A stretch of DNA of 64,000 bases. Origin: a virus. Lineage: Duplodnaviria; Caudoviricetes. Below, in pieces: positions 60,943-62,937 of this stretch (position 1 is its first letter; every line of letters starts with the position of its first letter). The translations under genes were made by a program, and so were the position numbers. The stretch is taken from positions 23,197 to 87,196 of IMG/VR virus record IMGVR_UViG_2974649007_000001; one strand, given 5' to 3'. The notes beneath the pieces are model-generated. The model did no database searches. It was not told the origin of the DNA and saw only the letters and a list, made by a program, of their open reading frames with translations.

Positions 60943-61864
60943 CCACCTGCAATCGGACAACTACGAGCCCGAGTCCTACCCTGGCGCCGGTGACGGCAAG
61001 GGCTGGCGGCTGAGCAAGAACGGCGACTGCCAGCTGGGCGACTTCAGCATGGTCAACGGCGAGATCTTCTCGCGCCACGGCAATGTGCGTGTGGACAACC
61101 GGCAGTACGAGCTGGGCTTAATAACCGAGGTTCGGATCGGCGACGATCAGAGCTTCCTGGACGAGAAGCACCTGCGCGAGGCCGGCATCGAGCCAGCGAC
61201 GATCTGGCCTAAGCGGGTGTACCTGACCCAGGAGCAGATCGAAGCAGCCAAGTGCGCCCTGCCTCCACACATCGTCCACAAGCCAGGTGCGAGCCGCGCT
61301 CACCAGGTGATGGCCACGCAGTGCGACCTCGAGGTGATTGTCCGCGTCGACCTGCCCGAGGGTGCCGACCCTGCGAACGCCGAAGGCTACGCCCACAAGA
61401 TCCGCCAGATCGTGATCGACACGATCAACAGCAGCGAAGTCCTGCAAGGCATGCGCTCCGGCCGGGTCACCACCGAGGCTACGGTACGTGCTGAGACGGA
61501 CTCGGCCCTGGCCTCACGGATCAGCGGCATGCGGGTACTGGACGAGTGGACGCACCCAGTGGACGGTGTGGGCTTACCCCTGCCACCTGAGAGTGCCCAT
61601 GCTCTGGCAGCTGCCATATCGGGTGTAAAACCTGGTGATGGTCAGGAGTTCTTGTACGTGAAGCAGCCTGGCGGGCCGGTGGAGATAGGCGACCTGCAAA
61701 AGTGCTGCGGCCGTGACACCTTCACCGAGCAGTTCCTGAACCGCGAAGTGCGCAGCGACATGAAGCCGGAGGTGGTCTGTGCGCTGAGCATGGCTGCGCC
61801 GATGACAGCCAACGGAAAGGTGCCGATAAATAATTTGCCTCGGCATATTGACGACGTTAAGTAA
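60914..61864 (+). CDS. Hypothetical protein
   Basis: MQHPDKL start with GGAG RBS; SDNY..GWRLSKNG N-terminus. Confidence 0.65.
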   Translation: MQHPDKLMFDHLQSDNYEPESYPGAGDGKGWRLSKNGDCQLGDFSMVNGEIFSRHGNVRVDNRQYELGLITEVRIGDDQSFLDEKHLREAGIEPATIWPKRVYLTQEQIEAAKCALPPHIVHKPGASRAHQVMATQCDLEVIVRVDLPEGADPANAEGYAHKIRQIVIDTINSSEVLQGMRSGRVTTEATVRAETDSALASRISGMRVLDEWTHPVDGVGLPLPPESAHALAAAISGVKPGDGQEFLYVKQPGGPVEIGDLQKCCGRDTFTEQFLNREVRSDMKPEVVCALSMAAPMTANGKVPINNLPRHIDDVK

Positions 61865-61876
61865 GCTCGCTAATCT
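61848..61876 (+). promoter_or_regulatory. Sigma70-type promoter for the tRNA cluster
   Basis: TTGACG-N17-TAATCT. Confidence 0.7.
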
Positions 61877-61882
61877 GCGGGC

Positions 61883-61932
61883 TCTGGCGAGGGACACGGA
61901 AGTCCCGCAACAGCGGACGTAGAATCGCCAGA
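61883..61932 (+). ncRNA. Structured leader with an RsmA/CsrA-type GGA hairpin
   Basis: TCTGGCGA/TCGCCAGA closing stem; GGGAC-ACGGAA-GTCCC. Confidence 0.5.
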
Positions 61933-61935
61933 ATT

Positions 61936-62012
61936 CTCCTCTTAGTTCAGTTGGCTAGAACACCTGCTTTGGGAGCAGGGGGTCGTAGGTTCGAGTCCTA
62001 CAGAGGTGACCA
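61936..62012 (+). tRNA. tRNA-Pro (UGG)
   Basis: Cloverleaf, anticodon TGG, TTCGAG T-loop, encoded CCA; U2:U71 mismatch. Confidence 0.93.
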
Positions 62013-62017
62013 GTTTT

Positions 62018-62096
62018 AGGGGGTTCGCCAAGTCTGGTTTAAGGCACCGGGTTTTGATCCCGACACGCCAAGGTTCAAATCCTTGACCCCCTTCCA
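62018..62096 (+). tRNA. tRNA-Gln (UUG)
   Basis: Cloverleaf, anticodon TTG, TTCAAAT T-loop, encoded CCA. Confidence 0.9.
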
Positions 62097-62100
62097 GAGT

Positions 62101-62210
62101 TCCAGGTTGAAAGCGCAAGCCAGTGCGCAGGGGGCCGTTCCCGCCGAGGGGGCCTAAAAACGGATACAACCGATCGGCAACCCCGGTAAGTCTGGCTCGG
62201 GGAACCTGGA
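62101..62210 (+). ncRNA. Unassigned 110-nt multi-helix RNA with two potential pseudoknots
   Basis: 8-bp closing stem, four hairpins, AGCCAG/CTGGCT and GCCGA/TCGGC complementarity. Confidence 0.6.
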
Positions 62211-62220
62211 CCGAAGCAAC

Positions 62221-62296
62221 AGCGAAGTAGCTCAGTTGGTAGAGCAGCGGGGTCATAATCCGTTGGTCGGGTGTTCGATTCACCCCTTCGCTACCA
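62221..62296 (+). tRNA. tRNA-Met or Ile2 (CAU), elongator type
   Basis: Cloverleaf, anticodon CAT, A1-U72 paired, encoded CCA. Confidence 0.9.
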
Positions 62297-62340
62297 GTTT
62301 GGCCCCCATGTTCTCGCAGGCAGTGGCAGGGTCATTTTTA

Positions 62341-62467
62341 CACGGAGAAGGATCTCCACCCGAGTGCGGGAGCTGAGGATAGCCACCCGGAAAGAGGCTG
62401 AATGAGATCTGGTAGGCCACCAGGTGCAGGTCAGTAATCATCGCCGGAGAAACACCTCAGCACTGAC
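62341..62467 (+). ncRNA. Unassigned GGA-rich structured RNA upstream of the terminator
   Basis: Six GGA in 120 nt; several stems; GTCAGT/ACTGAC potential pseudoknot. Confidence 0.45.
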
Positions 62468-62472
62468 ACACT

Positions 62473-62510
62473 GAAACCCCATGCGCGGCGCGCATGGGGT
62501 TTCTTTTATT
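62473..62510 (+). terminator. Intrinsic terminator of the tRNA/ncRNA operon
   Basis: 14-bp stem GAAACCCCATGCGC/GCGCATGGGGTTTC followed by TTTTATT. Confidence 0.85.
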
Positions 62511-62537
62511 TCAAAACCCCGCTAATCTGCGGACTAA

Positions 62538-62621
62538 GTCGGCCCGTGACCCCGAGGTACGCCTCGATTGACCCACGGATAACAGCCACCGGCTGTAACG
62601 GGGCAAGAAGCCCTAGCCGAC
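62538..62621 (+). ncRNA. Four-way-junction RNA leader upstream of the HU gene
   Basis: GTCGGC/GCCGAC closes three hairpins, one with a UACG loop. Confidence 0.5.
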
Positions 62622-62646
62622 CCCAACCACAGAATGGATTCCTATC

Positions 62647-62937
62647 ATGGCCAACAAAATCGCTAACACGCAGGACCTCATTGCCCTGGTAGCCGCCAAC
62701 GCCGGCATCAGCAAGGCAGAGGCCAAGCGCATCATCCAGGCCACGCTGCAGGGCATCAACCAGCTCGTGGCTGACAAGGACAAACTGCTGCTGCGCGAGT
62801 TCGGGATCTTCGAGCTGCGCTACCGTAAGCCGCGGATCAACAGCAAGCCCATCCAGGGTGAGCCCACCACGATCTCGGCCCGCGAAGTCCTGCACTTCAC
62901 GCCCAGCAGGCTGCTCAGCAAAGAGGTGGACTACTGA
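62647..62937 (+). CDS. HU/IHF-family DNA-binding protein
   Basis: DLI..VA..AGISKAEA..; FGIFE..RKPR.NSKPIQGE..I.AR.V..F.PS..L. Confidence 0.88.
   Translation: MANKIANTQDLIALVAANAGISKAEAKRIIQATLQGINQLVADKDKLLLREFGIFELRYRKPRINSKPIQGEPTTISAREVLHFTPSRLLSKEVDY

Follow-up and report, generated by a model that had tools for sequence, protein, structure and literature searches.

The window analysed here is a 64-kb stretch that comprises the last 64 kb (bases 23197-87196) of an 87,196-bp IMG/VR record from an uncultured Lana-like Pseudomonas phage. Its nearest cultured relative is Pseudomonas phage Lana (Lanavirus, 88.4 kb), with Pseudomonas phage UAntarctica farther off. Positions 62341-62510, flagged by an initial annotation as a GGA-rich, terminator-capped decoy RNA, lie inside an ORF-free stretch that extends from the end of a 336-codon ORF at 61864 to an HU-like gene at 62647-62937. 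The HU-like gene is followed by genes for a 198-aa protein, another small protein and the large terminase. The elements of the region are listed below.

61850..61880, plus strand: promoter-like element (TTGACG, 17 nt, TAATCT) including the 13-nt box CGCTAATCTGCGG, recognised from conservation only
61891..61906, plus strand: leader hairpin GGGAC-ACGGAA-GTCCC (C-ANGGAN-G), outside the flagged region, P unpaired 0.98
61936-62012, plus strand: tRNA-Pro
62018-62096, plus strand: tRNA-Gln
62221-62296, plus strand: tRNA-Met (CAT), last of the operon (ARAGORN; Rfam tRNA 65.2 bits)
62300..62339, plus strand: imperfect hairpin (62300-62334) followed by U5 (62335-39), from the fold and not called by the terminator scan
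62344..62357, plus strand: 14-nt hairpin GGAG-AAGGAT-CTCC with GGA in an ANGGAN hexaloop (or AGGA tetraloop), loop GGA P unpaired 0.99
62362..62473, plus strand: rod-like structured RNA, module B, about 110 nt (MFE, RNAalifold, covariation, covariance model)
62364-69/62463-69, plus strand: rod helix P1
62372-78/62455-61, plus strand: rod helix P2 (GCTGAGG/CCTCAGC)
62387-90/62444-47, plus strand: rod helix P3
62408-62425, plus strand: rod apical hairpin with loop AGGCC
62473..62510, plus strand: intrinsic terminator with a 14-bp stem (62473-62503), 9 G-C pairs and a T-tract (terminator scan)

Fifteen homologous loci were gathered, including those of Lana (L001), the IMG/VR contig L004 and UAntarctica (L005). 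The metagenome contig L029 was reached via a conserved 21-mer of the HU leader and was the one true relative found in the metagenome scan. Ten contigs (L030-L040) were reached via homologues of the 198-aa protein. A pattern scan of IMG/VR with a conserved 17-mer of the HU leader gave only chance matches beyond Lana and L004. All loci but L040 share a layout of promoter-like box, leader, variable tRNA set, structured spacers and strong terminator, and further 3' the CGCTAA(T/C)CT box appears again, ahead of a conserved leader and the HU gene. The arrays are mosaic: relatives differ in their tRNA sets, and at least four non-tRNA modules recur across the arrays in different combinations. Pairwise alignment of the leaders, spacers and trailers of the first four phages failed except for the 14-nt hairpin and the Lana/L004 leader.

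Several arrays contain further elements. An ORF on the minus strand of L029 (1753-2166) carries CxxC...H...CxxC motifs and is HNH-like (Pfam HNH, E = 0.0023, below the cut-off). It stands in place of tRNA-Pro, tRNA-Gln and the spacer, and the tRNA-Met is left truncated. The tRNA array of L034 is interrupted by a 131-aa ORF (1902-2297) for which a Pfam search gave no match. In L039 a tRNA-like sequence (2177-2270) with T-arm GTGGTTCGATTCCAT and acceptor-like end GGCGGCACCA lies between tRNA-Gln and the GGA hairpin; it was called neither by ARAGORN nor by the Rfam tRNA model at gathering score, and may be an aberrant or intron-containing tRNA.

Two other cassettes were observed. The 124-nt spacer between tRNA-Gln and tRNA-Met (62097-62220), module A, is a conserved cassette that starts with AGTTCCAGGT(T)GAAAGCGC and is closed by CCAGG/CCTGG. 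Its long form occurs in L031, L035, L037 and L038, in the last two after tRNA-Met, and a shorter form occurs in L030, L033 and L036, there immediately 5' of the terminator. Module A has no match in Rfam nor among cultured phages. In Lana (L001 2357-2512) and L038 (about 2370-2520) the slot 5' of the terminator holds a different trailer, module D, of about 150 nt with 7 GGAs (e.g. GATGGAAG, ATAGGAAGT, CCAGGATGG and GGCGGAAAAG). The two copies of module D are nearly identical and have no Rfam match; two sequences are too few for covariation.

An equivalent of the promoter-like element, TTGAC(G/A)-N17-TAA(T/A/C)(C/T)T, is found in all tRNA-bearing relatives. A consensus promoter scan called no promoter, the 61850-61880 element falling below the scanner threshold. 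The box CGCTAATCTGCGG has exactly two copies in the 64-kb window. The first (61868-61880) heads the tRNA operon, and the second (62520-62532), which has no TTGAC -35 element, lies just past the operon terminator and before the HU gene. The box may be a phage-specific promoter or start-site box, or it may delimit the array of RNA cassettes. The HU-like gene has a 5' leader (62533-62646) that is highly conserved as DNA in all relatives, including GGCAAGAAGC(C/T)CT(A/C)GCCG. Its only Shine-Dalgarno-like element, A(C/T)GGA(T/C), lies 8-12 nt 5' of the ATG and is itself of the ANGGAN type.

The hairpin in the operon leader is strongly conserved, and nearly every relative has one of this type. In 12 relatives the A-N-GGA of the loop is invariant (12/12), the stem is 96.7% paired, and 13 cells of the alignment show compensatory double changes. 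The closing pair is C-G in 11/12 relatives, giving CANGGA(Y/A)G, which is close to the RsmA/RsmF consensus quoted as CANGGAYG (bioRxiv 10.1101/315341). The leader hairpin of L039 is without a GGA. Within the leader (61884-61935) a second GGA lies 12-17 nt downstream of the hairpin, and an outer stem, CTGGCG/CGCCAG, encloses the whole. After RNase P cleavage the leader would be a compact RNA of about 50 nt. Hairpins with an ANGGAN hexaloop are 32-fold denser in these operons (2.33 per kb) than in flanking DNA (0.074 per kb); the window's genome has 13 of them, 2/13 within the 627-nt operon.

Comparison of the related loci divides the flagged region into two parts, the 14-nt GGA-loop hairpin and the rod-like RNA of about 110 nt with its terminator. 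As annotated, both stand downstream of tRNA-Met and a hairpin with U5. That upstream hairpin (62300-62339) is kept in L029, L030, L033 and L034, has a covarying analogue in L039, and could be a terminator-like or RNase E-type processing element.

The 14-nt hairpin was annotated as an ANGGAN hexaloop, and the fold agrees. In the predicted fold it resembles a single RsmA/RsmE/CsrA site, with GGA in the loop of a short hairpin and A-N-GGA-Y flanks. The loop AAGGAU sits on a stem of 4-5 bp whose closing pair is G-C, where the consensus has C-G. Five loci share one and the same 19-nt core, ACGGAGAAGGATCTCCACC, placed in two contexts: L029, L030 and L033 carry it in the same position as the window, and L039 carries it 5' of tRNA-Met in otherwise unrelated surroundings. 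The UAntarctica leader has the near-identical GGAGA-TGGA-TCTCC, and L034 is without the trailer hairpin. A host origin of the hairpin was considered and rejected; a search of 596 Gb of prokaryote genomes returned the 19-mer 4 times, a chance-level number, and always in taxa without relation to one another.

The strong terminator that had been described is present. Its hairpin varies among relatives, with the rod and the TTTCTTTT tail retained. The fold of 62297-62512 has a free energy of -86.9 kcal/mol (z = -3.7 vs shuffles), of which the terminator provides much of the stability. A small peptide was rejected as the product of the region; an 11-codon ATG frame at 62402 and the short frames of the relatives are not conserved.

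A covariance model finds the rod in single copy, at 80-113 bits, in 11 loci (the window, L004, L029-L035, L037 and L039). It does not find the rod in Lana, L038, L036, UAntarctica or L040; Lana and UAntarctica possess the leader hairpin alone. The rod is accessory, since Lana, L038, L036 and UAntarctica either do without it or have other modules in its place. When the rod and the 62097-62220 spacer were compared by blastn with 50,697 phage records, the Lana terminator region alone matched, and the rod was found in no cultured phage. A search of the window and 14 related loci with Rfam, at gathering and E-value thresholds, gave only tRNAs plus terminator-level noise.

Ten rod sequences were aligned with MAFFT, and the RNAalifold consensus is one long imperfect hairpin to which the apical hairpin was added. 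The resulting fold has 26 pairs in six helices, and 91.9% of cells are paired vs 78% in shuffles. When partners were slid by 1-3 columns, 32-43% (about 38%) were paired. Compensatory double changes occur at 14/26 pairs, and 0/500 shuffles equal the alignment on any of five measures; these values come from about 9 distinct homologues, and the structure was partly derived from the same sequences. Covariation in related phages, which the initial annotation had proposed as a check, is evident in the rod. P1 is invariant in sequence. G-U pairs fit the plus strand only, becoming C-A mismatches on the other strand, and the window's own MFE structure is the same rod. Of the alternative structures that had been proposed, GCTGAGG/CCTCAGC is real as the conserved P2, and the accompanying GTCAGT/ACTGAC pseudoknot is not supported, as ACTGAC is the 3' strand of the conserved P1 and GTCAGT occurs in no relative. 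The GCT-GAGGAT-AGC hairpin competes with P2, and no relative has an equivalent of it.

The apical loop of the rod (62414-62418 and equivalents) always contains a self-complementary tetranucleotide. In one subgroup this is GGCC, and in the other it is AGCT within GTAGCTAC or TTAGCTAA. Such loops would allow loop-loop dimerisation.

The six GGA triplets counted in the initial annotation start at 62344, 62350, 62369, 62377, 62389 and 62446. Six per 125 nt places the region in the top 0.6% of windows in this genome, and the same number is unremarkable for the local purine-rich composition (mononucleotide shuffle mean 3.5, P(>=6) = 0.10). The 10 homologous rods contain 41 GGAs vs 28 expected from dinucleotide shuffles, a 1.5-fold excess, and 1/10 rods reaches P < 0.05. 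What goes beyond chance is the conservation and covariation of the rod fold and the conservation of the 14-nt hairpin.

Exposure of the triplets was compared with that in genuine sponge RNAs. GGA 62350 has a P(unpaired) of 0.99 and GGA 62344, which forms the 5' strand of the same stem, 0.00. The four rod GGAs (62369, 62377, 62389 and 62446) have mean values of 0.33-0.64. Altogether 1 of the 6 GGAs in the trailer exceeds 0.8 and 2 exceed 0.5, and 0/41 GGAs in the homologous rods exceed 0.8. Six genuine RsmZ RNAs (84-122 bits, from a sample of 151 Pseudomonadota genomes) treated identically as a positive control have 6-9 GGAs, 5-8 of them with P(unpaired) > 0.5. Having the majority of its GGAs, typically 4 or more, free in hairpin loops or linkers defines an Rsm/Csr sponge, and the predicted trailer fold lacks this property. 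The rod GGAs sit where the purine-rich 5' strand ends a helix, so that the Gs are paired and the A opens a loop or junction. In a structure-aware alignment some are replaced in relatives, e.g. GGAGAA by GCAGAA or GCAGUA. Three positions recur in most homologues, in the P1/P2 loop, at the P2 end and at the top of the apical stem, all at helix ends. GGAs conserved amid varying stems, as expected of RsmX/Y/Z-type RNAs, are seen at the 14-nt hairpin; in the rod the pattern is mixed. Protein-induced melting may expose the recurrent rod GGAs. GGA counts alone do not mark Csr/Rsm sponges, as the purine-rich strands of ordinary helices yield them.

The Rfam 15 models RsmY (RF00195), PrrB_RsmZ (RF00166) and related Csr/Rsm families gave no match in the window, either at gathering score or at E <= 10. 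The sole RsmY match in L031, with 19.5 bits vs a cut-off of 57, falls on the terminator hairpin read from the opposite strand. The element is not a member of the Rsm/Csr sponge families. The proposal of an RsmY/RsmZ-type multi-site sponge is not supported by these results, with 1/6 GGAs predicted to be exposed and the rest at covariation-supported helix ends. What survives of the broader proposal, a phage Rsm/Csr decoy in a tRNA operon, is that the DNA is phage DNA, that the region is the ORF-free 3' part of the operon, that a strong terminator ends it, that it is conserved at the RNA level and that it has one hairpin that would make a good Rsm-type site.

The trailer is best explained as a processed, terminator-ended, structure-dependent non-coding RNA that represents a new family and has a single 5'-terminal Rsm-type site, a reading to which we assign a probability of roughly 0.6. 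The region would be the non-coding 3' trailer of the phage tRNA operon, sharing with tRNA-Pro, tRNA-Gln and tRNA-Met a transcript driven by the promoter-like element near 61850-61880. Since the rods of L031, L032 and L035 start at the final A of the tRNA-Met CCA, the rod is inferred to be co-transcribed with the tRNAs and set free when tRNA 3' ends are processed. tRNAs are matured by RNase P and RNase E/exonuclease, and these host nucleases would cut the trailer free as a discrete RNA whose 3' end would be set by the terminator at 62473-62510. The hairpin at 62344-57 is predicted to display its GGA as RsmA/RsmE/CsrA sites do. Evolution appears to have preserved the shape of the rod rather than its GGA triplets, which would arise incidentally where a purine-rich 5' strand closes helices with the two Gs. 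Because shape and not GGAs is preserved, the RNA most likely acts in trans as a stable molecule dependent on its structure, like others kept by phages in their tRNA clusters, and its partner is probably a protein. A protein partner without a name makes for a weak mechanism. A phage-encoded CsrA was searched for in the phage and none was found.

RsmA would play a limited part. The 5' hairpin would dock one RsmA/RsmE dimer at most. Because most GGA triplets are locked in helices, the trailer is probably not an RsmY/RsmZ-style multi-site sponge. Limited RsmA binding is plausible, since relatives conserve hairpins of the same ANGGAN type in their operon leaders.

It is also possible, though unlikely, that the trailer is a cis-acting element of the operon, serving processing, stability or read-through, and not a trans-acting RNA. 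It is bounded directly by tRNA-Met and the terminator, and the downstream operon begins 10 nt past the T-tract with its copy of the 13-nt box of the tRNA promoter. The AUUUUUACA stretch past the first hairpin looks like a cleavage site of RNase E, and RNase III typically cuts long irregular hairpins in phage transcripts, e.g. those of T7. However, L029 and L030 have swapped terminators next to an identical rod, so no antiterminator pairing is conserved and a riboswitch or antiterminator coupled to the terminator is unlikely. Relatives without the rod retain the same terminator and downstream operon, and covariation over 110 nt together with the sequence-invariant P1 exceeds the needs of a mere 3' protector.

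A trans-acting decoy is another alternative, and we regard it as quite unlikely. The trailer and the RNase P-released leader would titrate host RsmA/RsmE via their GGA motifs, the trailer hairpin acting as the high-affinity site and the rod junction GGAs as secondary sites. The hairpins at 62344-57 and 61891-906 both obey the ANGGAN-in-loop rule, and the near-consensus leader loop with its covarying stem and the enrichment of such hairpins in these operons are in line with a decoy. Another GGA lies 19 nt past the hairpin GGA, a spacing that a CsrA-family dimer can bridge, and strong expression from the tRNA promoter could offset the small number of sites. Against this, the trailer has one exposed GGA vs 5-8 in genuine RsmZ, the rod GGAs take part in the pairing of a fold backed by covariation and are in part not conserved, the Rsm/Csr models of Rfam have no match, the trailer hairpin is missing from L034, and the L039 leader hairpin is without GGA. 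In P. aeruginosa, active Gac/Rsm signalling, in which RsmA is sequestered, impeded phage DMS3vir (bioRxiv 10.1101/2022.04.01.486733), and therefore mimicry of RsmY/Z offers no obvious advantage to a phage.

In its fullest form a decoy would mean that Lana-like phages use the non-tRNA by-products of a strongly transcribed tRNA operon to capture RsmA/RsmE and re-set the Gac/Rsm switch during infection, a suggestion that we likewise regard as quite unlikely. The captors would be the leader of about 50 nt with its invariant C-ANGGAN-G hairpin and the trailer with its 62344-57 hairpin and junction GGAs. If true, an Rsm/Csr decoy RNA would for the first time be known from a virulent phage, and unlike RsmY/Z it would combine few sites per molecule with many molecules. 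No phage-encoded Rsm sponge was found in the literature searched.

That the trailer is a functionless remnant, either a decayed tRNA gene or a scar left in a mosaic array by the shuffling of cassettes or the insertion of a homing endonuclease, would suit the differing tRNA sets, the ORFs in L029 and L034, the truncated tRNA-Met of L029 and the unalignable trailers of more distant relatives, but it is very improbable and largely refuted by covariation, since compensatory changes maintain six helices, the rod model scores 80-113 bits across loci although the neighbouring protein is only 61-90% identical, and the tRNA model finds nothing in the trailer.

The locus adds to the small RNAs of phage tRNA clusters a covariation-supported family absent from the catalogues. 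The slot 5' of the operon terminator takes interchangeable RNA modules in close phages, as the slots of accessory or anti-host genes do. The conserved CsrA-type hairpins offer a concrete and cheap hypothesis, that a phage RNA touches the Gac/Rsm system, which is linked to phage tolerance in Pseudomonas.

Among known systems, Y-RNA/Ro was rejected; a TROVE gene is absent from the phage, and a weak YrlA match falls on tRNAs. Theta ribozymes, which are minimal and HDV-like, adjoin phage tRNAs and start exactly at the tRNA 3' end (Kienbeck et al. 2024, PMC10879173). In L031, L032 and L035 the rod shares this start at a phage tRNA 3' end, but it is twice as large and begins with A instead of G. In most relatives the rod 5' end could alternatively pair with an internal CUCGCGCU, producing the topology of an HDV-like pseudoknot; this pairing is broken in the window. 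An HDV-like or theta fold was rejected, as its pairing was 79.7% vs 76.7% in shuffles, was reached by 57/500 of them and had no covariation support. The HDV-family models of Rfam gave no match.

The trailer resembles RsmX/Y/Z (RF00166, RF00195) in being about 120-170 nt long and non-coding, with a Rho-independent terminator (the transcript here being predicted), and in having several GGA triplets, one of which a hairpin loop displays; RsmA/RsmE occur in the likely host genus. It differs in that its body is a single long rod and not a string of short GGA-loop hairpins, and in that it would arise from a tRNA operon by processing and not from a GacA-dependent promoter. McaS is an sRNA that binds CsrA with only two exposed GGAs, whereas the trailer has a single clearly exposed GGA. 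The 3'ETS-leuZ of E. coli is a tRNA-operon trailer that works as a sponge RNA, but it sponges sRNAs by base pairing and not a protein.

Small stable RNAs are found in phage tRNA clusters, namely the species 1 and 2 RNAs of T4 (rnaC/rnaD) and the stable RNAs of T5, whose function is unknown. As in the T4 rnaC/rnaD type, the trailer is an ORF-free structured RNA in a phage tRNA unit and contiguous with a tRNA. It shares with the T4 and T5 RNAs that it is phage-encoded, about 110-140 nt long and located with tRNAs, from which it would be released by tRNA processing; homology in sequence or structure is not expected. It differs in that a CsrA-type hairpin precedes the rod and that related phages fill the slot with differing modules. 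In its way of working the element would be closest to these small stable RNAs, T4 rnaC/rnaD being the example.
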